The notes beneath the pieces were generated by a model. That model was not told where the DNA came from. It was given only the letters and a program-made list of their open reading frames with translations, and did no database searches. A DNA stretch of 46,802 nt, taken from a virus. The translations under genes were made by a program, and so were the position numbers. This document shows, one piece after another, positions 8,981 through 46,802 of this stretch (the first letter of the stretch is position 1; every line of letters starts with the position of its first letter). Location: IMG/VR virus record IMGVR_UViG_3300039323_000029, one strand, 5' to 3'.

Positions 8981-9010
8981 CTCCTTTCGGACATAGTTTC
9001 ACTTATTGTA

Positions 9011-9039
9011 ATTATACAACTCTCCAATGCTTTTGTCAA
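9011..9039 (-). promoter_or_regulatory. Perfect sigma70-type promoter TTGACA-17-TATAAT in front of the portal gene
   Basis: Minus strand TTGACAaaagcattggagagttgTATAAT (-35 = 9034-9039, -10 = 9011-9016). Confidence 0.7.
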
Positions 9040-9080
9040 GATTGTTGAGCGTATAACCATTGAAGAATTTGTAAATATAA

Positions 9081-10748
9081 TTAAAACGGACGCTGAATAA
9101 TCTCAACCTTCGCTCCTACCAGACCACGGAGTTCATTTTCCAGCAGGGACAGAGAGTCAGGAGCGTCATCATGGGGAACCTTGCCGGAACGGGTATAGGT
9201 CACCACCTGTTTCATAAACTCTGCGTACTGGGAATTGCGGGCATACAGAGAAGGGTCTTTGAAATAGAACTTCTTAATGATGGTATCGGACGCAAACTCA
9301 ATACGGGTTTGCTTGTTACTAATAGTCCGCTTTGTGCGGATATTGCAGTTGTACTTCCTGTCCTCCAACAACTGGGACACATCACGGGCAAAGTAGGAAC
9401 CAGCGTTGTTACTTTCAAAGGTAGCCGCAACTACCCCGTTGTCCATCAATGCCTTTGCACACTCCGGCTTCGTTACTTCTGGGGGAGAGTCATCAAATAC
9501 CACGTCCACAATGTAGACTTCATCACCGTAAACCGCAGCAATAGGCATGGCGCAATAGTCAGCACCCGTGTCCGCAGTATCGCAGACTGCAATCACACTA
9601 TCCGGGTCACGGTCAACTGGGAGTTCAAAATATCTGTTCAGGCTGGCTTCCGGGAACAACAGACCCTTTGCTTCAAAAGGTTGCTGCTGAAACTCACTTT
9701 CAAACTGCTCCGCAGACAGCATTTCACGCTGGTCACGGAAATACTTTGTGGTAAAAATACGCTTACCCTCACGGATATACTCAAAGTTACTCTCGTCAGT
9801 TTCCAGGTCAAGCGCCGGGGTTTCGATGACCTTCATACGCTTGCCTTGCTTTTTCATTTCCTCCTGCAAGCGGCCAATAGGGTCATACAGAGAATAGCGT
9901 GTACCGCAGATGACAATGGGTGTTCCTTCAATGGCACGTCCGATAATATCACCAGAAATGACTTCCCACTTATCGTCAAGCCGCTGTCTGTTCTTTGCTT
10001 CTTCACGACCTTCCACACAGTCATCCAGATACAGCATATTGGTTGCTTCGGAAAGACCTACCTGTCTTGCGTCAATGGAACGGCACATGACCGTAGGGAA
10101 ACGGGACTTATGCAGCAGGTTCAGGATTTTAGTATCTGCATTGGTCTGTACCAGTTTGCTTTCCGGGAAAATGTCATAAAAGTGGTAATCACTGGGGGTT
10201 TGCAGATATTCCAGACAGCCCAGATAGAAAGACTTAACAAGGTCATCACCTGTACCCTCCATCAGGGTAGAGCGGTCAGGATACTTGCCGGACAGCATAT
10301 TGGTGAAGTTGATACCCAACTGGGACTTGCCCGCTCTCTTAGGCATGGAAATAGAGAGGAAGTCCAGCTTTCCGTCAAGGATTTCCTGGTATGCGTCCAC
10401 ATACCGCTTGAGATAGTGACGGCGGGGCTGGTAGAACTTCTTATCCAAAGGCTTGCCGAACTCCACGGCCTGCAAGTATTCATCAAAGAAATGCGGTGCG
10501 TCAAACAGTAGGGAACGGAACAGCAGGTCATTGAACCGCTCTGCCAGAGTGAAGTCCGGCTTATCAACGGCCAGTCGCAGACCGTACCCTACCTGAGTTC
10601 TCATACTCCTGTTCCACTCATGCGCTACGGTAAAGTCTATCTTCTCATACTCTCTGCACAGGGCGAACAGGTCATTGTATGCTTCTATATCCAAAGGCCG
10701 GGACTGTATAACCTGTTCAATCCGGCCTTTCAGTGCAATGTAATTCAT
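9081..10748 (-). CDS. terL: Terminase large subunit
   Basis: 555 aa. Walker A-like SMPKRAGKS, Walker B LYLDDCVEG, C-terminal nuclease-type VCDTADTGADY. Upstream of the portal. Confidence 0.9.
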   Translation of the reverse strand: MNYIALKGRIEQVIQSRPLDIEAYNDLFALCREYEKIDFTVAHEWNRSMRTQVGYGLRLAVDKPDFTLAERFNDLLFRSLLFDAPHFFDEYLQAVEFGKPLDKKFYQPRRHYLKRYVDAYQEILDGKLDFLSISMPKRAGKSQLGINFTNMLSGKYPDRSTLMEGTGDDLVKSFYLGCLEYLQTPSDYHFYDIFPESKLVQTNADTKILNLLHKSRFPTVMCRSIDARQVGLSEATNMLYLDDCVEGREEAKNRQRLDDKWEVISGDIIGRAIEGTPIVICGTRYSLYDPIGRLQEEMKKQGKRMKVIETPALDLETDESNFEYIREGKRIFTTKYFRDQREMLSAEQFESEFQQQPFEAKGLLFPEASLNRYFELPVDRDPDSVIAVCDTADTGADYCAMPIAAVYGDEVYIVDVVFDDSPPEVTKPECAKALMDNGVVAATFESNNAGSYFARDVSQLLEDRKYNCNIRTKRTISNKQTRIEFASDTIIKKFYFKDPSLYARNSQYAEFMKQVVTYTRSGKVPHDDAPDSLSLLENELRGLVGAKVEIIQRPF

Positions 10749-10759
10749 AGTCTACCTCC

Positions 10760-10790
10760 ATAAAAATAGGGACTGCCCGTAGACAGTCCC
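10760..10790 (-). terminator. Hairpin plus U-tract element with conserved flank (copy b)
   Basis: Minus strand: GTCCAAT GGGACTG-tctacggg-CAGTCCC TATTTTTAT, then GGAGG and the terL ATG. Confidence 0.55.
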
Positions 10791-10818
10791 ATTGGACAAG
10801 GCCGTGACCTTTCACGCC

Positions 10819-11067
10819 TTAGTATTCCCATGTAGGGTAAATTACCCACCGTGGGGTATGTTTCAATTTCGGTGTTCGCTTCCTGAACAGCTTTCCCAGG
10901 ATGAACGCTACTAAGGAGAACCCCAGCAGCAATATATCAAGGGCTGGCACGATGGTCAGCCACGCCATAAATTTGATAAACACCCAGCCTACCTTGCAGG
11001 AAAACAGCATGGATTTCCACAGCCGTTCCGCTGCACAGATGACCAGCAAAGTCAAAACGTCTGCCAT
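10819..11067 (-). CDS. Small membrane protein (2 predicted TM helices)
   Basis: 82 aa, two long hydrophobic stretches. Confidence 0.5.
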   Translation of the reverse strand: MADVLTLLVICAAERLWKSMLFSCKVGWVFIKFMAWLTIVPALDILLLGFSLVAFILGKLFRKRTPKLKHTPRWVIYPTWEY

Positions 11068-11082
11068 GCCGCCGCTCCTTCT

Positions 11083-11301
11083 TTAGTCAGTGATGGTGTG
11101 TTCCGTGCCGGAAGCCTTATCCCGCACAATCAGTTCACAGTCCATGCAATCCAGAAAACGGATAAGCATGGAAATCTTCATATCCCGGCTCAAGGCTTGA
11201 CTTACGCCGGATTGACTTTTCATACCTAAGAGTTTGGTTATTTCACCCTGGGTGATTTTCTTATCGCTCATAAGCCCTTTGACAACTTCATTGGCCTGCA
11301 T
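11083..11301 (-). CDS. Small helix-turn-helix DNA-binding protein (candidate regulator of the divergent promoters)
   Basis: KKITQGEITKLLGMKSQSGVSQALSR is an HTH. Start moved to the ATG at 11301, which has a GGGAGG RBS; the track start 11328 sits 7 nt from the -10 box. Confidence 0.65.
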   Translation of the reverse strand: MQANEVVKGLMSDKKITQGEITKLLGMKSQSGVSQALSRDMKISMLIRFLDCMDCELIVRDKASGTEHTITD

Positions 11302-11334
11302 TGTTATATCCTCCCTTTCGGATTTCATGTAAGC

Positions 11335-11363
11335 ATAATATCACGCTTTCATGCTATTGTCAA
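11335..11363 (-). promoter_or_regulatory. Sigma70-type promoter TTGACA-17-TATTAT driving the HTH gene and the downstream terL operon
   Basis: Minus strand cTTGACAatagcatgaaagcgtgaTATTATgc. Confidence 0.65.
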
Positions 11364-11400
11364 GTGCCTTTTTAGATTTTGCGGATTTTTCAAGATGACA

Positions 11401-11488
11401 GGTAGAGCATTTTCATATTTTGCAATAACTTCTTATAGAAGAAGCGCTTCTAAGAAAAGTTATAGGGAAAATGTAGTTTTACTCTACC
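11401..11488. repeat. 88-bp structured element, copy R1 (paralogue of 14384-14471)
   Basis: Same block architecture as R2: GGTAGAG-N9-ATTTTnCnATAACTTCTT-hairpin-TTATAGGGAAAA-N9-ACTCTACC. Confidence 0.8.
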
Positions 11489-11671
11489 CACCCAAGGATG
11501 AACCAAACTTTTTTTTATTTTTGCGGAACTTTCGGGGGTCACCCGCCCGCCCTGGCCGGGGTGCGTTTCCCCCTCCGGGGGTCACGTCCCCGGCTTCACG
11601 GCCAGCGCCCAGGACGGGCGCAGCCGGGGCAAGTCGGCCAGGAAAAACGCCGCCCGCCCTGCATAAAAAAT

Positions 11672-11718
11672 ATCATGTTTACATGATTTCATGCTTGACA
11701 TTATCATGCAAGCATGAT
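11672..11718 (+). promoter_or_regulatory. Two operator-like palindromes ATCATG-N4-CATGAT (11672-11687 and 11703-11718), centres 31 bp apart
   Basis: Read directly. The second lies in the -35/-10 spacer of the plus-strand promoter. A 13/16 related site is at 11324-11339, over the -10 of the minus-strand promoter. Confidence 0.6.
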
Positions 11719-11723
11719 ATAAT
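11695..11723 (+). promoter_or_regulatory. Perfect sigma70-type promoter TTGACA-17-TATAAT for the plus-strand cassette
   Basis: TTGACAttatcatgcaagcatgaTATAAT. Confidence 0.75.
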
Positions 11724-11821
11724 GATACCGTAAACAAGAAGCAGACCCGCAGCACGGCGCAGGCCGTAGGCGCTCAATGCTTCACCATTCAAGAATGATT
11801 AAATATGCAGGAGGTTACAGT

Positions 11822-12223
11822 ATGAATATTTTTGAACAGATGACCGCCCAGCTTGAGGGCAAGAAAGACCGCAGCGCATGGGGACGGGGTGTAAACGTGT
11901 ACGCTCTGGAACTGGTGGAAGAACTGGAAGAACGTGCAGCCTATGAAGGCCGCAACCCTGAACCCGGCCAGGAGTGCCGGGAATGGCTCTTGAACGGCGC
12001 TAATGATTGGAGTCAATACAGTTGGGGCGGCTCCGCTCTCATTTATGATGGTGACATTGCCGAAAGACTTTGCACCCCGTCCGAACTCAAGAAAACCCGC
12101 AACGGTGAGCGCAGACCCAACAGCCGGGAAGAATGGTTAGATGTTCAAGCCCGTGCATTATATCAGGCTTGCAACCGTGTTTCCCGCCTGTATGCCCGTC
12201 TTATGAAGGAGGTAGCAGCATGA
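11822..12223 (+). CDS. Hypothetical protein (133 aa), first gene of the plus-strand cassette
   Basis: ATG at 11822 preceded by GCAGGAGG. The track start 11777 lacks an RBS. Confidence 0.6.
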   Translation: MNIFEQMTAQLEGKKDRSAWGRGVNVYALELVEELEERAAYEGRNPEPGQECREWLLNGANDWSQYSWGGSALIYDGDIAERLCTPSELKKTRNGERRPNSREEWLDVQARALYQACNRVSRLYARLMKEVAA

Positions 12224-12456
12224 AGGATTTAACGCCCGCAACCATCCACGCCGCAGCGGTGGCGGCTCTCCCGGCCAGTGACATAGACCACCACGCCAGC
12301 GACCTTTATATAAAGGTCACCCCAGCAAGCCAGCAGTTATTAAACCGCTTTCAATACCGCCACATGGTCAAGACCTTTGTTGACAATATCGACCATGTAC
12401 AATGGTATGACCTGCCGTTTTGTTATGACCCCAGTATGAAGGAGGTAACCCCATGA
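12220..12456 (+). CDS. Hypothetical protein (78 aa)
   Basis: ATGA start/stop overlap with the upstream gene; GAAGGAGG RBS. Confidence 0.55.
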   Translation: MKDLTPATIHAAAVAALPASDIDHHASDLYIKVTPASQQLLNRFQYRHMVKTFVDNIDHVQWYDLPFCYDPSMKEVTP

Positions 12457-12578
12457 TATATGCAGAATGGACGCTTTACGGGGTGTTTGACAATGCAATC
12501 TTTATCACCTGGGACGAATACCACGCCGCCACATTCAACCCCGATATTATTATATTGGTGGTGCGGGTCATCAGGTAA
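12453..12578 (+). CDS. Hypothetical small protein (41 aa)
   Basis: AAGGAGG-N6-ATG, ATGA overlap with the upstream stop. Translation: MIYAEWTLYGVFDNAIFITWDEYHAATFNPDIIILVVRVIR. Confidence 0.4.
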   Translation: MIYAEWTLYGVFDNAIFITWDEYHAATFNPDIIILVVRVIR

Positions 12579-12583
12579 ACCAC

Positions 12584-12609
12584 AGCCCCGGCCAACCCGT
12601 GCCGGGGCT
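12584..12609 (+). terminator. GC hairpin (possible attenuator) upstream of the FtsK-like gene
   Basis: AGCCCCGGC-caacccgt-GCCGGGGCT followed by TATTT. Confidence 0.35.
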
Positions 12610-12630
12610 TATTTCATAGGAGGATACACC

Positions 12631-13362
12631 ATGCACAAAGAATGGAGAACGCCGCCCGGACAGGTTTATAACCTGTACCGGGATATGCTCAAACAGCCGC
12701 ATTTGCTCATTGCAGGCGCAACGGGCAGCGGTAAATCAGTAGTTATTAACGGCCTTGTATATACGGCCATGTATGACAGCCCCGCCGCCGTGCAATTCAT
12801 CTTAATTGACCCTAAACGGGTTGAATTGGTGGATTATAAGCTGCTCCCGCATACGCTCATGTATGCAAGTGAACCGGGGGAAATGGTGGAAGCCTTAGAA
12901 AAGGCTATGGAGATAACAGAAAGCCGATACAAGGCCATGCAGCGCCAGAGGGTCAAGAAGTACCCAGGCGGGGCGCTGTATGTCATCATTGACGAATTGG
13001 CCGACCTTATGACCACAGCCCGCCGCCAGGTGCAGCCGCTTATACAGCGCCTTGCACAGGTAGGCAGAGCGGCAAACGTGCATATTATAGCCGCCACACA
13101 ATGCCCGCTTGCTACTGTGATACCCACGCCTATAAAAGTAAACTTTGATAGCCGGGTAGCCTTGCGCACCCGCTCCGCACAGGACAGCCGCAATATATTA
13201 GGCTTAACCGGGTGCGAACTGTTACCCCGATATGGTCAAGGCTACTATATGACCCCGGACGGCTTGAAGCTGTACAACATACCCATGCAGCCCCAGGAAG
13301 ATATAAACGCCCTTGTAAAGTATTGGCAGCGCTCCCGGCCACGTTTCCGGCTATTCAAATAA
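12631..13362 (+). CDS. Minimal FtsK/SpoIIIE-family ATPase (motor domain only, 243 aa)
   Basis: Walker A LIAGATGSGKSVVIN, Walker B ALYVIIDELADL, and VHIIAATQ / ALRT blocks typical of FtsK motors. Start at the ATG with an AGGAGG RBS. No TM or gamma domain. Confidence 0.8.
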   Translation: MHKEWRTPPGQVYNLYRDMLKQPHLLIAGATGSGKSVVINGLVYTAMYDSPAAVQFILIDPKRVELVDYKLLPHTLMYASEPGEMVEALEKAMEITESRYKAMQRQRVKKYPGGALYVIIDELADLMTTARRQVQPLIQRLAQVGRAANVHIIAATQCPLATVIPTPIKVNFDSRVALRTRSAQDSRNILGLTGCELLPRYGQGYYMTPDGLKLYNIPMQPQEDINALVKYWQRSRPRFRLFK

Positions 13363-13367
13363 CGCAA

Positions 13368-13397
13368 GCCCCGCCCACCGTGGCGGGGTTTTCCTTT
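13368..13397 (+). terminator. Rho-independent terminator ending the plus-strand cassette
   Basis: CCCCGCC-caccgt-GGCGGGG followed by TTTTCCTTT. Confidence 0.7.
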
Positions 13398-13530
13398 ACC
13401 GTCCAGCGGCCAGCGCCGCCCAGGGTGGTTATTTTATGCCCAGGCGGGCGACTACCCCCGCAAGCCAGAAACGCCCAGAGGGGCGCACAGACGGCCACAG
13501 CGGGCAGGCCAGCCGGAACGCCGCAGGGCA

Positions 13531-13567
13531 TGAGAAAAGCCCCGGCGCAGCCGTAGCCGTGCCGGGG
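13531..13567 (-). terminator. Hairpin plus U-rich tail downstream of terS
   Basis: Minus strand CCCCGGC-14 nt-GCCGGGG CTTTTCTC, 28 nt after the terS stop. Confidence 0.45.
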
Positions 13568-13594
13568 TTGGTGGTGTGGGATGGTGCAAGAGGT

Positions 13595-14251
13595 TTAGCC
13601 CCTGGGGGCTTTCTGTGCCTTTCTGGGAGTTTCCACAGTTTCGACAATAACCCCTTCTGCGCTTTCTGCTCCTTCTGGGAGTTCCAGCACATCAGCAGCG
13701 GGAAGCCCTTCTGTGACTCCATAGGTATTTTCAAGATACTTCTGTTTAAGTGCTTCTGCGTCCTTCTGCTCTCCCAGGGGGTTAGTGTTAGGAGTGAGAA
13801 CCACTTCCTGCTGGTCTTTCAGGCCGTCATAGTTCTTCTGCCAGAATATGCCAGTAACGGGGTTGACCTTGCCGTCCTCCATGAGTCCTTCTCTGTACAT
13901 GGCACAAATCTGTTGCACTTTTTTTACAAAGTCGGTGCGGGCAGGGTTCCCCAAATTCCTATTAGCCCATTCCCATGCTGTACCCTTATCTATACCTATC
14001 GCAGCATACGCCGCCTGATTGCCTATCTTCATATCCCACTGGGCGCAGAGTTCCAGATAACGGGCAAAACGCCGCTCCATTTCCTCCACGTCATTATGGT
14101 CAAGGGGTTCAGTCGGAAGGATAATCTGCATGAACCTAATCTTTCTGGCATTATACCCTTCTGGCAGGTCAGGGTTCTGCTCCACAGGCAGCGGGTTATC
14201 CGTTCTGGCCTGTCTGGGTTTCAGGTCTTTCGCTCCGGGTGTTCGTGCCAT
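13595..14251 (-). CDS. terS: Terminase small subunit
   Basis: 218 aa. HTH-like GNQAAYAAIGIDKGTAWEWANR, then NPVTGIFWQKNYDGLKD (the IF-LKN-fGw-D block common in small terminases). First gene after the replication module. Confidence 0.6.
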   Translation of the reverse strand: MARTPGAKDLKPRQARTDNPLPVEQNPDLPEGYNARKIRFMQIILPTEPLDHNDVEEMERRFARYLELCAQWDMKIGNQAAYAAIGIDKGTAWEWANRNLGNPARTDFVKKVQQICAMYREGLMEDGKVNPVTGIFWQKNYDGLKDQQEVVLTPNTNPLGEQKDAEALKQKYLENTYGVTEGLPAADVLELPEGAESAEGVIVETVETPRKAQKAPRG

Positions 14252-14357
14252 TCTCCTTCACCGCCTTTCTGCCCTTCTGGGGCTTCTGCTCCTTCTGGGC
14301 TTTCTTCTGGGCAGCTTCTTTCTGCTCCCTGTGATACCGTTCAACATAACTTTCCAT
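14196..14357 (-). CDS. Possible Lys/Gln-rich small ORF (53 aa) overlapping the terS start
   Basis: Strong RBS AAAGGAGGAAACGACA-ATG. MESYVERYHREQKEAAQKKAQKEQKPQKGRKAVKENG... Low-complexity sequence, so uncertain. Confidence 0.3.
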   Translation of the reverse strand: MESYVERYHREQKEAAQKKAQKEQKPQKGRKAVKENGTNTRSERPETQTGQNG

Positions 14358-14383
14358 TGTCGTTTCCTCCTTTCTGTGAGGAA

Positions 14384-14471
14384 GGTAGAGTAAAATCGAA
14401 TTTTACTATAACTTCTTCTTAGTACACGCATACTAAGAGAAATTATAGGGAAAACGTGAAAATACTCTACC
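14384..14471. repeat. 88-bp structured element, copy R2 (paralogue of 11401-11488), with an extra ACTCTACC at 14474-14481
   Basis: Block-wise alignment with R1. On the minus strand it contains TTTTCCCTATAAT (-10-like box at 14442-14447) and the hairpin CTTAGTA-N6-TACTAAG. Confidence 0.8.
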
Positions 14472-14482
14472 TAACTCTACCT

Positions 14483-15961
14483 TTAGACGGCTTTCAAGCC
14501 CAGGCCATAGTACACGGTCATGCCTTTAATCAGCCCTTTATCGTGATACCAGCCGGGGTGTGCCGTCACTTCTGCATTAAACTTCTTCATACTGCATACA
14601 TAGTAGCCATTGCTCTTGCACCAGATTTTGTATGCGTCATATATAGCTTTCGCAGTCGTGTGTCCTTCTGCGATATGCTCACACTTTTCTTCAAGGAACT
14701 GCAACACCAGGTCATTGTCCTTCTCATAAGCCTTGACCACCTTCTGCATATGAGCGGGCATTTTCAAACCAAAGCGCTTGTATTTGAAGTAGCCCGCCAC
14801 CAGCCAGGTAAAGATACCCTTCATGGCTTCTGGGCTTTCAAAGAAATCCTTCAAGCCTTTGTCTTGTTCATCGTCCGTGAAGTGTCGGTTGAACTCAATG
14901 ACACGTACACGGTCGGAAGCAAACAGGCTCTTGTCCTTTACGGACGGCAGGTCATTACAGGACAGCCACATTGTAAACTGCGGCTTGAAGGTAATGGCCG
15001 CTTGATACAGTTCACGGGCGGTAATGTCCTCACCACCTGTGTACTGCTTAATGGTAGCTTCGTCCAGCTTGCCCGCCGTATCGGACTCACTCATGGTAAC
15101 GAACCTGCGGCCTTTCAACTTTGCCAGCACGGAAGAAGGTGCTTCTGCGTTCTTCTGCCTTTCTGCCTTACAGATAAGTTCTACCGGGGCAACCGTAGAG
15201 TAGTCACCAAGCAAATGCTGAATAGCGTCCAGCATGGTAGACTTGCCGTTTCTGGTGGTCTTGCCGTGGAGGATAAACATACATTCCTCTTTGCTGGTTC
15301 CCAAAATGGAATAACCAAGCGCCCGCTGCAAGTAGTCAGCCTTTTCCTTGTCATCCTGGGTGACTTCTGCAATGAACTTTTCCCAGCGTTCACAGCGTAC
15401 TTCCTGCAAACTGTATTCAAAGTTCGTCTGCATGGTCAAGAAGTCATCCCACTTATGTTCCCGGAAGGTCATGGACTCAAGGTCATAGGTTCCGTTCTGG
15501 CAGTTGACCAGGTACGGGTGGGTGTCGAACTTGCTTGCTTCAATGCGCAGGTTATCAGCAGCGTCCTTCATCAGGCGGTCACGGAAGCGGCGGTCACCCA
15601 TCTTCGCAACGAAAGCCATATACTGCTTCCGCTTTTCATCATCGGAAATCTCACCACAGTACAGCGCCATCAGCCGGACGAACTCTTTAATCTTTGTACT
15701 CACCAACAGAGAACTCACGTCCTTCTGCCAGCGGCCACTTTCATAGGTGAACCAGGACTTTGCTTCCGGGCAATATCGGGTGTCCTTCTTGTAGCACTCA
15801 CTGAACAAGTCGGCCATGCCCGCTTCATCCCAGCTATACCCAGTGCTATCCTCTTGATAGGACAGTTCAGGCCGGACGCTCTTAATGTAGAACATCTTTT
15901 CACTGATTTCTTCGGACGTGATATAGCGCCCATTGGAGAGTTGGAACAATTCATCAACCAT
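14483..15961 (-). CDS. D5 / P4-family primase-associated SF3 helicase
   Basis: Walker A ILHGKTTRNGKST, Walker B RFVTMSESD, D5_N-like N-terminus. Start at ATG 15961 with an AAGGAGG RBS. Confidence 0.85.
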   Translation of the reverse strand: MVDELFQLSNGRYITSEEISEKMFYIKSVRPELSYQEDSTGYSWDEAGMADLFSECYKKDTRYCPEAKSWFTYESGRWQKDVSSLLVSTKIKEFVRLMALYCGEISDDEKRKQYMAFVAKMGDRRFRDRLMKDAADNLRIEASKFDTHPYLVNCQNGTYDLESMTFREHKWDDFLTMQTNFEYSLQEVRCERWEKFIAEVTQDDKEKADYLQRALGYSILGTSKEECMFILHGKTTRNGKSTMLDAIQHLLGDYSTVAPVELICKAERQKNAEAPSSVLAKLKGRRFVTMSESDTAGKLDEATIKQYTGGEDITARELYQAAITFKPQFTMWLSCNDLPSVKDKSLFASDRVRVIEFNRHFTDDEQDKGLKDFFESPEAMKGIFTWLVAGYFKYKRFGLKMPAHMQKVVKAYEKDNDLVLQFLEEKCEHIAEGHTTAKAIYDAYKIWCKSNGYYVCSMKKFNAEVTAHPGWYHDKGLIKGMTVYYGLGLKAV

Positions 15962-15977
15962 ACGTTTTCCTCCTTTC

Positions 15978-16277
15978 TTACAGATTTTTGCGCAGATTGC
16001 TTGCGATAGCTTCAACCCGCTTTCTGTCAAGACGGGGTTTCGCCAGGGCTTCTTCCAGGCCGTTCATTGTATCCATCAGCATACCGTGATAACCGTCTGC
16101 AATCTTCTCATATTCATCAGGGTCAGCGGTCTTATACTCCGCAATGATTTCCTCAAAGAGTTCTTCGCAGTCCCGGCCAAGGTTCTCCCGGATAATCTTC
16201 TGCAATTTGTCAACTTCGGTTTCCCCGGCAAAGATATACTCCGTGGAACCATTCTCAAGGTAAAGTGTACGTGCCAT
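15978..16277 (-). CDS. Hypothetical acidic protein (99 aa)
   Basis: ORF with compact spacing to its neighbours. Confidence 0.5.
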   Translation of the reverse strand: MARTLYLENGSTEYIFAGETEVDKLQKIIRENLGRDCEELFEEIIAEYKTADPDEYEKIADGYHGMLMDTMNGLEEALAKPRLDRKRVEAIASNLRKNL

Positions 16278-31002: not shown

Positions 31003-31569
31003 TTAGATTTTGAAAGCGGGACGCACACCGGGAGCGTAGGAAGCGTAGTAGTAGGTCGCAAAGCCGTCGTCGTCGACATTGGCAAAAAGCGCAGCGGAAC
31101 CCTCCACCTTGTTCTGCAACCAGTACCATTCCCACGTCCCGGTCTTGCTTCCCTGGAACGCAATGCGGTTGCGGCGGTCTTTCATAGGCTCCCACTGTTC
31201 TACGTCATCCGGCTCCTTCTCACCGTAGGGGTTGTAGCCGAAAATCTCACGCTCCGTGGGCAGGCGCAGCAGGTCACCGCTCTCAAAAGCCACCATCTTC
31301 TCACGGATTTCAGCCGGGAAGCGGTCAAGGATTTCAGTGTTGAGCGCCTTACGCAGTGCGCAGGACTTGTACCCTCCACGGTTGGAACTGGTACGGTTCA
31401 TGGAATACTCCTTACGCAGGCAGTCCACCAGAACGAAAATCATGCCGTCCTGCTCCTGCTTTACGGCCAGGGCTTCCACTTCTTCGCCGTCATTGAGGGT
31501 GAAGGTGATAACGTCACCCACGCAGTAGTGACCATCGGCCACTGCTTCGATAGTTCTAAACAACTTCAT
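31003..31569 (-). CDS. Second (remote) DGR target protein, 188 aa, with C-terminal variable ligand-binding (CLec/DUF1566-like) region
   Basis: Last 29 codons are VR2. C-terminus WEWYWLQNKVEGSAALFANVDDDGFATYYYASYAPGVRPAFKI parallels the VR1 target WFWLRDVVSAARFAYVGDSGNANSNSASLAAGVRPAFSIIG. Confidence 0.8.
   Translation of the reverse strand: MKLFRTIEAVADGHYCVGDVITFTLNDGEEVEALAVKQEQDGMIFVLVDCLRKEYSMNRTSSNRGGYKSCALRKALNTEILDRFPAEIREKMVAFESGDLLRLPTEREIFGYNPYGEKEPDDVEQWEPMKDRRNRIAFQGSKTGTWEWYWLQNKVEGSAALFANVDDDGFATYYYASYAPGVRPAFKI
31012..31098 (-). repeat. DGR variable repeat VR2
   Basis: 87-nt alignment to TR: 15 mismatches, 14 at TR adenines (coding strand) and 1 at position 79. Confidence 0.85.
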
Positions 31570-33811: not shown

Positions 33812-33840
33812 TTGACAAGAAGGAGTTCAATGGTTATAAT
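33812..33840 (+). promoter_or_regulatory. Perfect sigma70-type promoter TTGACA-17-TATAAT pointing toward the repressor/integrase
   Basis: TTGACAagaaggagttcaatggtTATAAT. Confidence 0.7.
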
Positions 33841-33890
33841 GAAGTTGCCACACTTTTATACCATTGAAAACCTACCGGGCTTAAAAATTG

Positions 33891-33906
33891 CCGCCCAGGT
33901 GGGCGG
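33891..33906. terminator. Short GC hairpin flanked by T-runs on both strands, inside the convergently transcribed region
   Basis: CCGCCC-aggt-GGGCGG. Followed by GTTTCTT on the plus strand and CAATTTTTAAG on the minus strand. Confidence 0.4.
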
Positions 33907-33945
33907 GTTTCTTGCGCCCTGTAAACAACTTTTGTTGACATACTC

Positions 33946-33974
33946 ATAATATCAAAGTCAACTTAGATTGTCAA
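33946..33974 (-). promoter_or_regulatory. Sigma70-type promoter TTGACA-17-TATTAT pointing toward the cro-like/early operon
   Basis: Minus strand TTGACAatctaagttgactttgaTATTAT. Confidence 0.65.
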
Positions 33975-34019: not shown

Positions 34020-34373
34020 ATGACATTCTATGAGCGATACGAAACATTGTGTACAGAACGGGGTATGAAGCCGCAAACCCAGGAAATTCTTGATATTTTG
34101 GGGGTCACTTCGCCCACAATCTCCGGCTGGAAGAAGGGTTCCAGCCCTAAAATGGAAGCTGTCTGCTGTTTGGCACGATACTTCGGGGTAACCACAGACT
34201 ACCTTATGGGTCTAAGTGAACTTAGAACCCCCGGTATGGTATTGACAGAGGAAGAACTTCTACTGCTCAACACCTATCGCAATTCCAGCACCCAGGGACG
34301 CTTCCGTATTATTCAGGTCTGTATGAATGAAATGGATACCACTGGAAAAGGGGCAACCGTAAATGCCGGATAA
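34020..34373 (+). CDS. CI-like XRE-family repressor
   Basis: HTH QEILDILGVTSPTISGWKKG...LARYFGVTTDYLMG; AGGAGG RBS. Confidence 0.8.
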   Translation: MTFYERYETLCTERGMKPQTQEILDILGVTSPTISGWKKGSSPKMEAVCCLARYFGVTTDYLMGLSELRTPGMVLTEEELLLLNTYRNSSTQGRFRIIQVCMNEMDTTGKGATVNAG

Positions 34374-34400
34374 TTGACTTGAATGAGTGGAGGAAGAACC

Positions 34401-35984
34401 ATGTATGAAGAAATCAAAGAAGTAGCGCTGTATGTACGCTATTCCAGTGCCAACCAGACAGAACAATCCATTGAGGGACAGATACGTGTCTGCACGGACT
34501 TCTGCCAGCGTCACGGGTTCCGTATTGTTGAGATATACGCAGACCGGGCAACATCGGCCAGCAAGGATATTGAAAAGCGTGTAGAGTTCCTACGCATGAT
34601 AAAGGACTCCGAAAAGAAGAATTTTCAGGCCGTCATAGTCTACAAGCTGGACAGGTTTGCCCGCTCCCGCTATGACAGCGCCAACTACAAATACCGTCTG
34701 CGAAAGAATGGAGTACAGCTTATTTCGGCCACGGAGAATATCTCCAATGACCCAGAAGGTATTATCCTTGAGTCTGTGCTTGAGGGCATGGCAGAGTTTT
34801 ACAGCGCAGAACTCTCCCAGAAAATCAACCGTGGCATGAAGGAGTCGGCTTATAAGCATAACTCCATTGGTGGTGTCATTCCTCTGGGGTATAAATCGGA
34901 AGGAAAGAAACTGGTCATTGATGAAGAAACGGCTCCCATCGTCCGGCAGGCTTTTGAAATGTACGCAGAGGGTCATAGTGTTGCGGAGATATGCCGTCTG
35001 TTCAATGCCCGTGGGTATAAGACCTCCAAAGGTACACGGTTCGGAAAGAGTTCTTTCAGCAGAATGTTCCACAATGAGCGGTACATCGGAGTGTACCAAT
35101 ACCATGACTACCGGGCAGAGGACGCTATACCTGCCATCATTGATAAAAAGCTGTTCTATCAAGTGCAAGCCCGCATGAAATCAAATAACCGCAGTCCCGG
35201 CCAGCATAAGGCCAAACACTTCTACCTGCTGTCTGGCAAATTATACTGCGGTCACTGCGGTTCTAAGATGAACGCCAGTAGCAACACCACTTCCGGCTAC
35301 ACCTATTATGAGTGCTATGGAAAGAAAAACCTCCATGTAGACTGCCACAAGCGGAACCTGCGCCAAGACTTCATAGAGGACGTAGTAATCCGTGACGCTA
35401 TGTCATTGCTCACGGATGAAAATATTGAACAAATTGCAGAAGTAGCCATCCGTACCAACCTCCATGACGTGGAAGGTAACACAGATATTCCGGCCATCAA
35501 AGACAGACTACACGAAACAACGCTTTCCCTTTCCAACCTGGTCAAGGCTATTGAAAGTGGACTTGCCCCGGAAACACTGGTCAAGCGTATGGTGGAATTA
35601 GAGAAAGACAAAAAGACCCTGGAAGAAGAACTCAAGCGTGAGGAAAAGAAGGTCATCTATCTGGACAAGGAACAGGTCATCTTCTGGCTGGAACAGTTCA
35701 AAGGCGGGGATATTGAGGATGACGATTTCCGCAGACTGCTGGTGAACCTATTCGTCAACTCCGTTACGGTATGGGATGAAGAAGATGACCACTTCAAGGT
35801 CACCATAGCCTACAACCTTAGTTCTCTCAACGAAAAAACCTACCACCTCAAGAGAGGTGGTAGGCAGTCGGATTTCAACCTCAATGCACCAGCTTTCGGG
35901 ACAAATCCGACAATCCACGGAACCCTGCTATATCACACAACTACGTGCTGCATGAAGCGCCGGAACATCAATCAGGAAGTTTAA
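34401..35984 (+). CDS. int: Large serine recombinase (integrase)
   Basis: Resolvase domain ALYVRYSSANQ...DRFARS, recombinase domain, Cys-rich zinc ribbon CGHCGS...ECYGK, coiled-coil C-terminus. Confidence 0.9.
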   Translation: MYEEIKEVALYVRYSSANQTEQSIEGQIRVCTDFCQRHGFRIVEIYADRATSASKDIEKRVEFLRMIKDSEKKNFQAVIVYKLDRFARSRYDSANYKYRLRKNGVQLISATENISNDPEGIILESVLEGMAEFYSAELSQKINRGMKESAYKHNSIGGVIPLGYKSEGKKLVIDEETAPIVRQAFEMYAEGHSVAEICRLFNARGYKTSKGTRFGKSSFSRMFHNERYIGVYQYHDYRAEDAIPAIIDKKLFYQVQARMKSNNRSPGQHKAKHFYLLSGKLYCGHCGSKMNASSNTTSGYTYYECYGKKNLHVDCHKRNLRQDFIEDVVIRDAMSLLTDENIEQIAEVAIRTNLHDVEGNTDIPAIKDRLHETTLSLSNLVKAIESGLAPETLVKRMVELEKDKKTLEEELKREEKKVIYLDKEQVIFWLEQFKGGDIEDDDFRRLLVNLFVNSVTVWDEEDDHFKVTIAYNLSSLNEKTYHLKRGGRQSDFNLNAPAFGTNPTIHGTLLYHTTTCCMKRRNINQEV

Positions 35985-45444: not shown

Positions 45445-46802
45445 TTAAGTAAAGCTGTAACCGTTTGCGTCACGCTGGGTTTGTACAGCGTCCGTAATGG
45501 TGCGATTGCCAATCTGCACAGTAGTCTGTTCCTTCTTGTTGGCCTGCCTGTTCATGTCATCAGCCATCTGGGTCATGGTTCCCTGTACGTACTCCGTGTA
45601 GAAATCGGCCATAGCCCTCTTGAACCCAGCGTAGCCAGGGGAGTCATCAGGTTCATCCGGCAGACCACTTCGTACCTTTTCGGCAAGGGTATCCATCCAT
45701 TCAGTGTGACGTTCCAGAGGAAGCACCGCTTCCTTTCCGGCTTCGCCACCACCCAAGAAAGAGTTACCCAGCATACCGAAAATCTGTGCGCCATCCAGAA
45801 TACCGCCCTTTGCGTTCCACGTCAGGTTAAAGCCGGACGGGTAGGAATAATCCTTACCGAACACTGTTACGGTACTCCATTTGACAGACACTTTCGGAAC
45901 CTTGATACCCAGCGTAGTCCACAGCGTACCCACTGCATTACTCCACCAGGTCTTGACGTTAGACCACCAGGTAGAAGCCTGATTTTGTACGGCAACCTTC
46001 ACAGAGAGGTTACCTACCACACCAGACCACCAGGTCTTGACGTTAGACCACCAGGTAGAAGCCTGGTTCACAACGCTGGTTGTGAAGGACTGAACTGCGC
46101 CGACCTTGCCAGACCACCAAGACTTACAATTACTCCACCACGTAAAGGAGTCGTTCTTCAAACTGGTAGTGAACTGCTGGACTGCACCAACCTTTCCGCT
46201 CCACCAAGTTTTCACGTTGTTCCACCAAGTAGTGGACTCATTCTTCACGGAAGTGGTGAACTGCTGCACGGCTCCGACCTTGCCAGACCACCAGGTCTTG
46301 ACATTGTTCCACCATACGCTGGACTGGTTGGTAACCGTGGTTGTAAACTCCTTCACAGCGCCGACCTTTCCGCTCCACCAGGTCTTAGTGTTGTTCCACC
46401 AAGTAGTGGCGTGGTTCTTCACGTTGGTAGTGAAGGACTGAACTGCACCAACCTTGTTGTCCCACCAAGTACAGACGTTAGACCACCACTCTGCGGCGGT
46501 GTTCTTCACGCCTACGGCAAACTCAACCAGGTCAACGTCCTCAAAGGCTTCCATGAGCGGGTCAAGGATATTGGTCTTAATCCAGGTGCCAATAGCCTTA
46601 AACGGCTTGAGGATACCACCCAGCAGACCTTCCATGATGAAAACGCCAATTTCCTCCATCACGGTAGACGGAGAGTGGATACCGAACAAGTCTTTGAACC
46701 ACTGAACAAAGGGGTCAACGATGTTGGTTTTAATCCAGCCACCGGGGTCTGCAAAGAACTCCGTGAGTCCCTTTGTGAAGCCTGCCCACATATCGGCTCC
46801 GG
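45445..46802 (-). CDS. Tape measure protein, 3' portion (continuation of 2110->1 across the circular junction)
   Basis: The track ORF 45445..46791 begins MWAGFTKGLTEFF, which is internal to the ORF read from 2110; same frame. Confidence 0.85.
   Translation of the reverse strand, partial: GADMWAGFTKGLTEFFADPGGWIKTNIVDPFVQWFKDLFGIHSPSTVMEEIGVFIMEGLLGGILKPFKAIGTWIKTNILDPLMEAFEDVDLVEFAVGVKNTAAEWWSNVCTWWDNKVGAVQSFTTNVKNHATTWWNNTKTWWSGKVGAVKEFTTTVTNQSSVWWNNVKTWWSGKVGAVQQFTTSVKNESTTWWNNVKTWWSGKVGAVQQFTTSLKNDSFTWWSNCKSWWSGKVGAVQSFTTSVVNQASTWWSNVKTWWSGVVGNLSVKVAVQNQASTWWSNVKTWWSNAVGTLWTTLGIKVPKVSVKWSTVTVFGKDYSYPSGFNLTWNAKGGILDGAQIFGMLGNSFLGGGEAGKEAVLPLERHTEWMDTLAEKVRSGLPDEPDDSPGYAGFKRAMADFYTEYVQGTMTQMADDMNRQANKKEQTTVQIGNRTITDAVQTQRDANGYSFT
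45919..46515 (-). repeat. About 6.5 tandem 29-aa (87-nt) Trp-rich repeats within the tape measure
   Basis: TTxVKNxxxxWWxNxKTWWSGKVGAVxxF repeated in the ORF translation. Confidence 0.9.
46704..46802. repeat. Terminal direct repeat, identical to 1-99
   Basis: Base-by-base comparison. Confidence 0.95.

Follow-up and report, generated by a model that had tools for sequence, protein, structure and literature searches.

What is an oppositely transcribed gene block, complete with its own promoter and terminator, doing between the two terminase genes of a temperate phage, and was it inserted there or does it belong there? The question is raised by the IMG/VR virus record IMGVR_UViG_3300039323_000029, a stretch of 46,802 nucleotides (the window, in what follows), where a rightward cassette of three small genes and a 243-amino-acid (aa) FtsK/SpoIIIE-type ATPase (FtsK243) separates the gene of the small terminase subunit, terS (13595-14251, minus strand), from that of the large subunit, terL (9081-10748, minus strand). 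An original prediction, made from the letters of the DNA, had described this block as a self-contained, moron-type module inserted between terS and terL, and all of its open reading frames (ORFs), both promoters, both terminators and the ATPase were recovered at or within a few bases of where it had placed them. The comparison with relatives points to another history. As far as its sequence tells, the interval holds an accessory operon that the lineage has conserved, with an expression scaffold that stays fixed, and a recently inserted moron is excluded. The explanation we favour, tentatively and somewhat short of an even chance, is that the cassette is an accessory ("entry burst") operon driven by the host RNA polymerase and repressed by a helix-turn-helix (HTH) protein, which would combine exchangeable host-interaction genes with a double-stranded DNA (dsDNA) translocase built from the FtsK beta domain only.

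The interval between terS and terL

Relatives were taken from 80 IMG/VR loci fetched by TerL (76-100% identity) and 80 fetched by FtsK, and the interval was compared in the 50 relatives that hold both terS and terL, which gives 51 genomes with the window included. Relatives with contiguous terS and terL, which had been set beforehand as a test of insertion, were not seen (0 of 50), the interval measuring 2.6-5.6 kb. In 48 of the 51 genomes the FtsK gene occupies the same place, where it runs against terL and is the convergent neighbour of terS, and FtsK identity (69-98%) roughly parallels TerL identity. The same arrangement returns in eight deeper phage loci (L177, L179, L184 and L313-L317), where a terS-like gene is convergent with FtsK and lies 0.2-1.9 kb downstream of it, at identities of 43-67% for FtsK, 26-36% for terS and 34% for TerL where it was seen. 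Homologues carrying the block in the same place, which the original prediction itself had named as speaking against its reading, were thus found for the ATPase. The composition is also ordinary, with a G+C content of 0.45-0.54 for the cassette genes compared with 0.45-0.56 in sliding windows along the genome. Of the inserted moron there remain the autonomous promoter and terminator and the swapped small genes described below; the insertion itself does not stand. Measured against the morons of lambdoid and temperate phages (Hendrix/Juhala definition), the unit is similar in being an autonomous promoter-gene-terminator unit that runs against its neighbours between two late-region genes, but differs in that nearly all of the lineage has it at one and the same site, that its composition is not atypical and that only its internal genes vary.

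The accessory character that had been claimed for the block is borne out by relatives without FtsK, namely L078-L080 (TerL 76%) and L311/L312, which keep the reverse-oriented small-gene operon, including a homologue of its first gene, p133. Because such relatives exist, the FtsK gene is, by this comparison, dispensable, that is, accessory rather than essential. A recent capture of FtsK from a host was considered and rejected, the identity to chromosomal FtsK genes being only about 40%. Copies integrated into bacterial genomes were seen in Lachnospiraceae and further Clostridia, Oribacterium and Moryella isolates among them, and the lineage is abundant in human-gut metagenomes.

On the plus strand the cassette is ordered as promoter, 98-nt leader, p133, p78, p41, a hairpin, a ribosome-binding site, FtsK243 and terminator, and the stop and start codons overlap (ATGA) at both the p133/p78 and the p78/p41 junction. 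The same four genes are called by independent gene callers on eight public contigs, the annotated frame has the best coding score in all four ORFs, and ratios of nonsynonymous to synonymous substitution rates (dN/dS) of 0.14-0.29 indicate purifying selection. A 112-aa ORF at 11395-11733 was discarded as a gene (coding score -0.38), since it overlaps a conserved non-coding spacer. The picture of a self-contained, oppositely oriented unit that has a sigma-70-type promoter and a terminator to itself, and from which an HTH gene diverges, is therefore upheld, and its description as the only plus-strand unit outside the lysogeny module is consistent with the other credible plus-strand genes being those of a CI-like repressor (34020-34373) and a large serine integrase (34383-35984). 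Likewise, terS and terL are split both physically and transcriptionally. The intrinsic terminator of the cassette (13366-13399, plus strand; hairpin 13366-13391 with a ten-pair stem followed by UUUUCCUUU, -18.5 kcal/mol) is convergent with that which terS has of its own (13532-13567, minus strand; hairpin 13540-13567, -24.6 kcal/mol, followed by CUUUUCUC).

The FtsK243 motor

FtsK243 (12631-13362, plus strand), which is preceded by a good ribosome-binding site, corresponds to the beta (RecA-like) domain of the FtsK/SpoIIIE-type ATPases. It matches Pfam FtsK_SpoIIIE (PF01580) at 2.8e-34 with 119 bits (cut-off 24), NCBIfam FtsK at 9e-36 with 123 bits and PHROG 1358 at 4e-60, and it aligns with residues 162-425 of E. 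coli FtsK (PDB 2IUS, E 9e-36) from its residue 17 onwards, so that 16 residues are left before the alignment and 4 after it. With only these 16 residues preceding the motor there is no alpha domain; no Ftsk_gamma match was obtained in Pfam at E up to 0.1, and no hydrophobic segment or N-terminal anchor was found (maximum 19-residue Kyte-Doolittle value 1.33). The earlier description of a motor-only ATPase with Walker A GATGSGKS and Walker B VIIDELAD, and with neither a transmembrane (TM) segment nor a gamma domain, was accordingly correct. Among chromosomal FtsK proteins of E. coli and P. aeruginosa (PDB 2IUS, 2IUT and 2IUU) it is the beta motor that gives the best match, with the Walker A, Walker B and GRAA motifs kept, whereas FtsK243 is without the N-terminal membrane domain, the linker, the alpha domain and the gamma (KOPS/XerD) domain, and has instead an ATQCP motif and a short conserved basic/hydrophobic C-terminal tail.

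The catalytic motifs are hardly varied within the lineage, Walker A GATGSGKS and Walker B (V/I)IDELAD being present in 48 of 48 members and Q(I/V)GRAA in 47 of 48. R146 in this QxGRAA motif, which we take to be the arginine finger on aligning the protein with FtsK of P. aeruginosa and of E. coli, is invariant in 8 divergent homologues down to 41% identity. With intact Walker A and Walker B motifs and an intact arginine motif, FtsK243 looks catalytically competent, and its dN/dS is 0.14. FtsK243 would most likely form a ring, possibly a hexamer, that moves along dsDNA with ATP as its fuel; its domain assignment relies on the sequence alignment to 2IUS, as the AlphaFold2 (AF2) monomer, built from a shallow alignment, was poor (predicted local distance difference test, pLDDT, 54) and was not used. 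The ATQRP of the FtsK family is changed to ATQCP (13093-13107) in 48 of 48 lineage members, and in more distant beta-only homologues the variable residue is R, S or A. The C-terminus carries the conserved basic/hydrophobic tail YWxxxxPR(L/F/I)(R/K)(W/L)(L/F), which ends as RPRFRLFK in the window (13324-13362), and the distant homologues L185 (3949-4872) and L187 (571-1455) have a C-terminal TM helix in its place, which suggests a C-terminal membrane association of FtsK243. The C-terminus of the L177 homologue, KKKGFFARLFGM, is reminiscent of the MinD membrane-targeting helix.

The constant neighbour of this motor is terS, and a packaging or DNA-maturation accessory that works with TerS has to be weighed, either as a motor loaded at or near pac that aids the processing of concatemers or as a motor to which TerS supplies gamma-like DNA recognition. 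FtsK adjoins terS in the 48 genomes and in all eight deeper loci in spite of the low terS identity of the latter, the FtsK-HerA superfamily includes viral packaging ATPases, and PHROG 2666, annotated as terminase large subunit, matches FtsK243 at 5.5e-13. In the Bacillus phages Sam46 and Sam112 the gamma DNA-binding domain of FtsK is fused into TerS (PMC8190038), so that parts of FtsK and TerS have been combined before; compared with these, the beta motor in the window appears as the complementary arrangement, a separate and oppositely transcribed gene beside a TerS in which Pfam finds no gamma domain. We nevertheless regard a packaging role as quite unlikely. FtsK is transcribed on the opposite strand from a sigma-70-type, operator-controlled promoter, apart from the late genes, and TerL is equipped with its own Walker A (PKRAGKS), Walker B (LYLDD) and T7-type RNaseH-like nuclease domain (Pfam, 2.6e-5). 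Since L078-L080 and L311/L312 belong to the same TerL/portal family and are without FtsK, the motor cannot be essential for packaging, and the conserved synteny may be mere inherited architecture.

Beyond this lineage, a tblastn search found FtsK/SpoIIIE-like genes in 401 of 50,697 phage records, all less than 60% identical to FtsK243; 275 of them are Bacillus phages, and the others include phages of Mycobacterium, Listeria and Staphylococcus. In our literature search no FtsK-like protein of a phage had a function assigned by experiment; reviews suggest DNA translocation or sporulation control (PMC4113786, PMC4464726). The latter would fit a beta-only protein that joins or competes with the FtsK/SpoIIIE of the host and thereby alters division or segregation, and for the homologues of gamma-like and W-beta-like phages in particular sporulation control has been proposed (PMC4464726, PMC4113786). 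Such manipulation of the host cell cycle or sporulation agrees with the high identity of the aligned blocks to the E. coli FtsK beta domain, with the assignment of PHROG 1358 to the PHROGs category 'moron, auxiliary metabolic gene and host takeover' and with the large share of Bacillus phages, but we find it rather improbable. A passive poison subunit would not need catalytic motifs, which here are strictly kept, and relatives are also found in phages of the non-sporulating hosts Mycobacterium, Listeria and Staphylococcus. Furthermore, the two isolate hosts Oribacterium and Moryella are described as non-spore-forming, and the alpha domain, which FtsK243 is without, contributes to FtsK ring formation.

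The cassette might also be the remnant of a plasmid- or conjugative-type module for DNA transfer or maintenance, of the sort formed by an FtsK-like coupling protein and its partners. Some homologues of p133 have its domain fused to DUF3849, and DUF3849 occurs in Firmicutes mobile elements. A Replic_Relax (PF13814) gene follows FtsK in the Bacillus phages Fah and 274BB002, and FtsK243 gives weak matches to TraB (4.8e-6) and TcpA (PDB 6O1W, 4e-9). However, the TraB match amounts to 25 bits in NCBIfam against a cut-off of 800, FtsK243 resembles chromosomal FtsK much more than it does the coupling proteins and has no N-terminal membrane anchor, and no Replic_Relax, relaxase, Rep or secretion-system gene was found in the interval with Pfam and NCBIfam. 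Neither the score nor TM segments nor relaxase, Rep or type IV secretion-system neighbours in the interval place FtsK243 among the conjugative coupling proteins (TcpA, TraB, Tn916 Orf21), and we consider this origin very improbable.

Outside the phage context, solitary beta-only FtsK genes persist in Clostridia chromosomes at L178 (9998-10732, 58%) and L183 (9980-10846, 53%) with no phage neighbours, one of the two directly downstream of recF. At L177 (9293-10750, on a Mediterraneibacter contig) a 230-aa serine recombinase with a Resolvase domain lies 4 nt upstream of FtsK in the same operon; as the genes that follow encode a sigma factor and an ABC-F protein apparently of the host, a prophage end may adjoin the FtsK module there.

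Exchangeable genes and their switch

The three small genes ahead of FtsK243 are the variable part of the cassette. They comprise p133 (11822-12223, 133 aa, dN/dS 0.15), p78 (12220-12456, 78 aa, dN/dS 0.29), which is translationally coupled to p133, and p41 (12453-12578, 41 aa, dN/dS 0.17), which is translationally coupled to p78, all on the plus strand. The closely related L002 shares 99.0% identity with the window over 9000-11795 and 97.8% over 12576-16100, and precisely the stretch in between, 11796-12575, is swapped for three unrelated genes; compared with L163, 11796-12440 is swapped and p41 is kept. On the left, the conserved 5' leader (11724-11795, 99% identity to L002 and L163) is the limit, the identity to L163 stopping exactly at 11795 as well, and on the right identity with L002 resumes at 12576, adjoining a GC-rich hairpin with a weak U tract in the p41-FtsK gap (12584-12609, plus strand; -19.9 kcal/mol, z -3.5). 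Given these precise swap limits, the leader and the pre-FtsK hairpin both act as boundaries of an exchangeable block. In the relatives the first slot is occupied by p133 or by a protein of at least three other, unrelated kinds (135 aa, acidic with a pI of 4.05 and carrying a poly-Glu tail; 125 aa; or with DUF7447), at least four further families fill the slots after it, and p41 homologues of 68-83% identity are present in L016, L032, L033 and L066.

The small proteins are as free of recognisable function as the original prediction had stated, Pfam, PHROGs, NCBIfam and PADLOC being uninformative. With the same four libraries, none of the five non-ATPase proteins of the interval gave an informative match beyond weak regulator matches of the HTH protein, and among ten alternative cassette proteins only one was matched, by DUF7447 / PHROG 4655. 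The p133 family is a large, uncharacterised domain of phages and mobile genetic elements, with 1131 clusters at 50% identity and no Pfam domain, and in fusions it often stands C-terminal to DUF3849, for which our literature search found no paper. The AF2 model of p133 (pLDDT 80, helical) has no significant fold match in PDB or BFVD, and phmmer against PDB returned only AcrIC9 (E 0.5, not significant). Both p133 and the acidic alternative, c6, have thousands of homologues in large databases, where the only name is 'hypothetical protein'. Relatives of p133 also occur among the small early-region genes of Parabacteroides phages.

The scaffold on which these genes are exchanged is built around two mirrored promoters. 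The cassette promoter (11695-11723, plus strand) has the form TTGACA-17-TATAAT, matches the consensus at 12 of 12 positions and carries a TG extension, and the promoter of the divergent HTH gene and its neighbour mem82 (11335-11363, minus strand; 11 of 12, also with a TG extension) is an inverted copy of it. The two are 329 bp apart and fall within the inverted repeat I1 (11334-11364 versus 11694-11724, 31 nt, 84% complementary). Promoter sites with at most one mismatch number 5 in the window compared with 0.25 expected, and comprise the cassette/HTH pair, the pair of the main CI switch and one site ahead of the portal gene; the CI switch is thus the only other facing near-consensus pair. Because only these five exist and this pair is among them, the unit is, on promoter evidence, a second autonomous switch driven by the host polymerase.

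Two perfect palindromes of the sequence ATCATGnnnnCATGAT, at 11672-11687 upstream of the -35 element and at 11703-11718 in the -35/-10 spacer, are putative operators of the cassette promoter and are the only perfect copies in the window; degenerate copies are seen at the HTH promoter (11324-11339 and 11340-11355). Control of the cassette by the main CI repressor was rejected, since elsewhere ATCATGnnnnCATGAT is found only with 2 mismatches at 31439 and the motif is missing from the CI switch region. In essentially every relative a promoter matching at 11-12 of 12 positions is found at the equivalent place with the same two-palindrome geometry, but with different palindromes, for instance ATCGTG..CACGAT, TCAAGAAA..CTTGA, AAGATATATCTT and ATACAAAAATGTAT, and the operator sequence changes together with the type of HTH protein. 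This covariation is the pattern that repressor and operators would leave when co-evolving. In the window the HTH protein is HTH81 (11083-11328, minus strand, dN/dS 0.14), a putative repressor of both mirrored promoters, for which matches are weak (Pfam MarR_2 and HNF-1_N; the regulators PHROG 1373/2339). FtsK243 has no promoter of its own and stands behind the hairpin with the weak U tract at 12584-12609, and for this reason we assume that the hairpin is probably an attenuator, by which FtsK expression would be attenuated relative to the small genes.

Between the divergent promoters lies an untranscribed spacer with a conserved T-tract/GC-rich core (11508-11583, in 59 of 81 genomes), consisting of the motif CTTTTTTTATTTTTGCGGAAYTTTCG....TCACCCGCCC followed by GC-rich hairpins, which is kept even where its flanks differ. 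In some relatives the T-tract of the spacer abuts the -35 element of the HTH promoter, like an UP element. A near-palindromic hairpin element of about 90 nt is present in two copies, at 11395-11495 (RNA fold z -4.0) and at 14375-14475 in the gap between the primase gene and the 53-aa ORF/terS pair (z -7.8), with 72% identity and compensatory changes in the stem. Most relatives have one copy ahead of terS and one ahead of the HTH gene and terL; both halves of the split packaging operon therefore share the element, which may be a late-promoter, activator-binding or leader structure. At the CI switch, a 12/12 promoter (33812-33840, plus strand) is followed about 50 nt later by a hairpin and T-run (about 33889-33915) and faces an 11/12 promoter (33946-33974, minus strand), and a short RNA antisense to the early leftward transcript could be made there.

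Leftward, the HTH gene is followed in the same orientation by mem82 (10819-11067, minus strand), which encodes an 82-aa basic membrane protein (maximum 19-residue Kyte-Doolittle value 2.51, pI 9.9, dN/dS 0.24), and by a terminator hairpin just before terL (10769-10790, minus strand; a nine-pair stem followed by UAUUUUU, -17.8 kcal/mol, z -4.5). In relatives the mem82 slot is a hot spot of accessory genes, where mem82 is replaced by a TM protein with an Mrr_cat nuclease domain, a TM2-domain protein, a Bro-N-like protein or serine recombinases (L034 7402-7935, L063 7688-7915, L056 6977-7705 and L010 6768-7571). The membrane-anchored nuclease matches Mrr_cat (PF04471) at 1.7e-26 and the nuclease domains of PDC-S02/ZorD in PADLOC.

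As for the genome around this locus, the window was assembled as a closed circle, its first and last 99 bp being exact direct repeats (1-99 = 46704-46802), so that the true genome is about 46,703 bp. It is that of a temperate siphovirus-like phage with nearly every gene on the minus strand, the cassette, the CI-like repressor and the integrase being the exceptions. From right to left, a D5-type primase gene (14483-16030) in the minus-strand operon is followed by a lysine/glutamine-rich 53-aa ORF (14196-14357, minus strand), which runs into the beginning of terS, is also predicted on public contigs and has no family match, then by terS, the cassette on the opposite strand, the HTH gene, mem82 with its terminator, terL and an SPP1-type portal gene. 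TerS (218 aa; PHROG 606, 2.4e-9; dN/dS 0.17) is encoded by the last gene of the replication/early-middle operon, and terL (555 aa; PHROG 38, 4.3e-47) flanks the interval on the other side and opens the late packaging/structural operon; neither protein has sequence relatives in PDB. A perfect 12/12 sigma-70-type promoter is located at 9011-9039 (minus strand) between terL and the portal gene, within the presumed late operon. An Rfam scan of 10700-13700 gave no match. Fixed physical genome ends in the spacer were also considered and rejected, as contig ends are enriched in the interval but scattered, as a hypervariable region predicts.

Possible functions and known parallels

From this architecture we infer how an entry-burst operon could work. 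HTH81 would repress both promoters, and when the genome enters a cell free of the HTH protein, on infection and possibly on induction, the host RNA polymerase would fire both at once. The small proteins would be made in a burst and the ATPase in smaller, attenuated quantity, the leftward promoter would make HTH81 and the variable membrane or defence-like gene, and accumulating HTH81 would then switch the operon off. The small proteins, in view of their fast turnover, would most likely be host-interaction or counter-defence factors that assist takeover, and, because FtsK243 is without a gamma domain, its ring would be expected to translocate on dsDNA without sequence guidance, acting early on phage or host DNA.

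Several points weigh against this explanation. Its timing is deduced from promoter and operator anatomy alone, and in the libraries, fold searches and source names covered here the small proteins match none of the families known for anti-defence, defence or host takeover. Counter-defence genes typically evolve fast, unlike this strongly conserved enzyme, and the deep linkage to terS is left unexplained by an entry burst save as inherited architecture. The state of the lysogen matters as well: if the HTH protein is present there, the operon could stay silent at induction, and if it is absent, the unit could be one that is expressed from the prophage.

The latter would lead to a superinfection-exclusion or defence module in which the ATPase, with or without the small proteins, blocks or expels incoming DNA at the membrane. 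The orientation against all lytic genes and the host-type promoter and terminator are compatible with such a module, as are the persistence of the solitary chromosomal copies and the membrane association suggested by the FtsK tail and by the TM helix of distant homologues. In relatives the neighbouring arm holds the defence-like TM and Mrr_cat protein, and at the level of domains PADLOC reports SspH (1.5e-27), mad8 (6.9e-25) and HerA for FtsK243. These matches, however, reflect the shared P-loop domain only. The SspH match covers the last ~190 of 1766 profile positions and that to mad8 reaches 86 bits, below both the Pfam and the NCBIfam FtsK scores; the other five interval proteins have no PADLOC match and the partner genes of Ssp or MADS are absent from the interval, so that for Ssp (SspH), MADS (mad8) and HerA-type systems alike the resemblance is confined to the ATPase domain. 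Moreover, the upstream genes are swapped for unrelated ones in differing numbers, unlike a single multi-gene defence system, and the operator-bearing promoters argue for tight repression by the local HTH protein, which would be unusual for constitutive lysogenic-conversion genes, and against constitutive expression from the prophage. We therefore judge an exclusion or defence module to be unlikely, although it deserves serious consideration.

A further possibility would account for the terS linkage that the entry burst leaves aside, namely that the beta-only FtsK serves the phage as a DNA pump whose function is linked to the pac-proximal end of the genome, beside terS. Encoded by the leading part of the entering DNA, it would be produced within the first minutes, would be kept at the membrane by its basic/hydrophobic tail, and would there either draw in what remains of the phage genome, as the motor of a second transfer step, or clear host defence complexes off that DNA, with the swappable small genes as the accompanying counter-defence payload. 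We hold this to be decidedly unlikely; if true, it would give the widespread FtsK/SpoIIIE-like genes of phages a first assigned function and would explain the linkage.

Setting the pump aside and returning to the entry-burst operon, it is worth asking which known modules it can be compared to. The nearest parallel in architecture is in the Bacillus W-beta/gamma-like phages (Fah genes 17-22; Cherry gp22), where the function is uncharacterised. In Fah, also a temperate siphovirus of a Firmicute, an HTH gene and a membrane/lipoprotein gene on one strand are divergent from two small ORFs that are followed by an FtsK/SpoIIIE ATPase, and this ATPase gene belongs to the delayed-early class (review PMC4113786). 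The Fah ATPase differs in having 429 aa, with about 160 extra N-terminal residues, and in being followed by Replic_Relax, whereas the 243-aa protein of the window is followed by a terminator and Pfam finds no Replic_Relax in the interval. The motors are only 25% identical, the HTH proteins are unrelated, and in Fah the module is flanked by lysis and lysogeny genes and not by terS and terL.

In its working the cassette can be likened to the anti-CRISPR (acr) operons controlled by anti-CRISPR-associated (Aca) proteins, with which it shares a strong promoter with inverted-repeat operators, a local small HTH protein as putative repressor, small genes of unknown fold that vary among near-identical phages, and a location among packaging and structural genes. 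In the window, by contrast, the HTH gene diverges from the operon and does not follow within it, the last gene is that of a conserved ATPase without counterpart in acr loci, and no protein matches a known Acr, AcrIC9 being the best.

Phage modules of this general kind are already known, though uncharacterised. What appears distinctive here, as far as can be read from the genomes, is the minimal beta-only motor, its fixed position on the terS side across a deep clade and an exchangeable block with precise limits, governed by a switch whose repressor and operators co-evolve. Hundreds of phage genomes have annotated FtsK/SpoIIIE-like genes, of which this lineage offers a minimal, motor-only version in an experimentally tractable system: there is no partner gene that is always present, relatives without FtsK exist in nature, and the promoter/operator switch is well defined, which is what makes it tractable. 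More generally, a block that looks like a moron in one genome can be ancient, fixed genome architecture. The locus is a natural site of cassette exchange, where the sole difference between near-identical phages is a block of small genes with exact limits; such a bounded swap is the signature of an arms-race locus and makes the interval a promising place in which to seek new host-interaction or counter-defence proteins of gut Firmicute phages.

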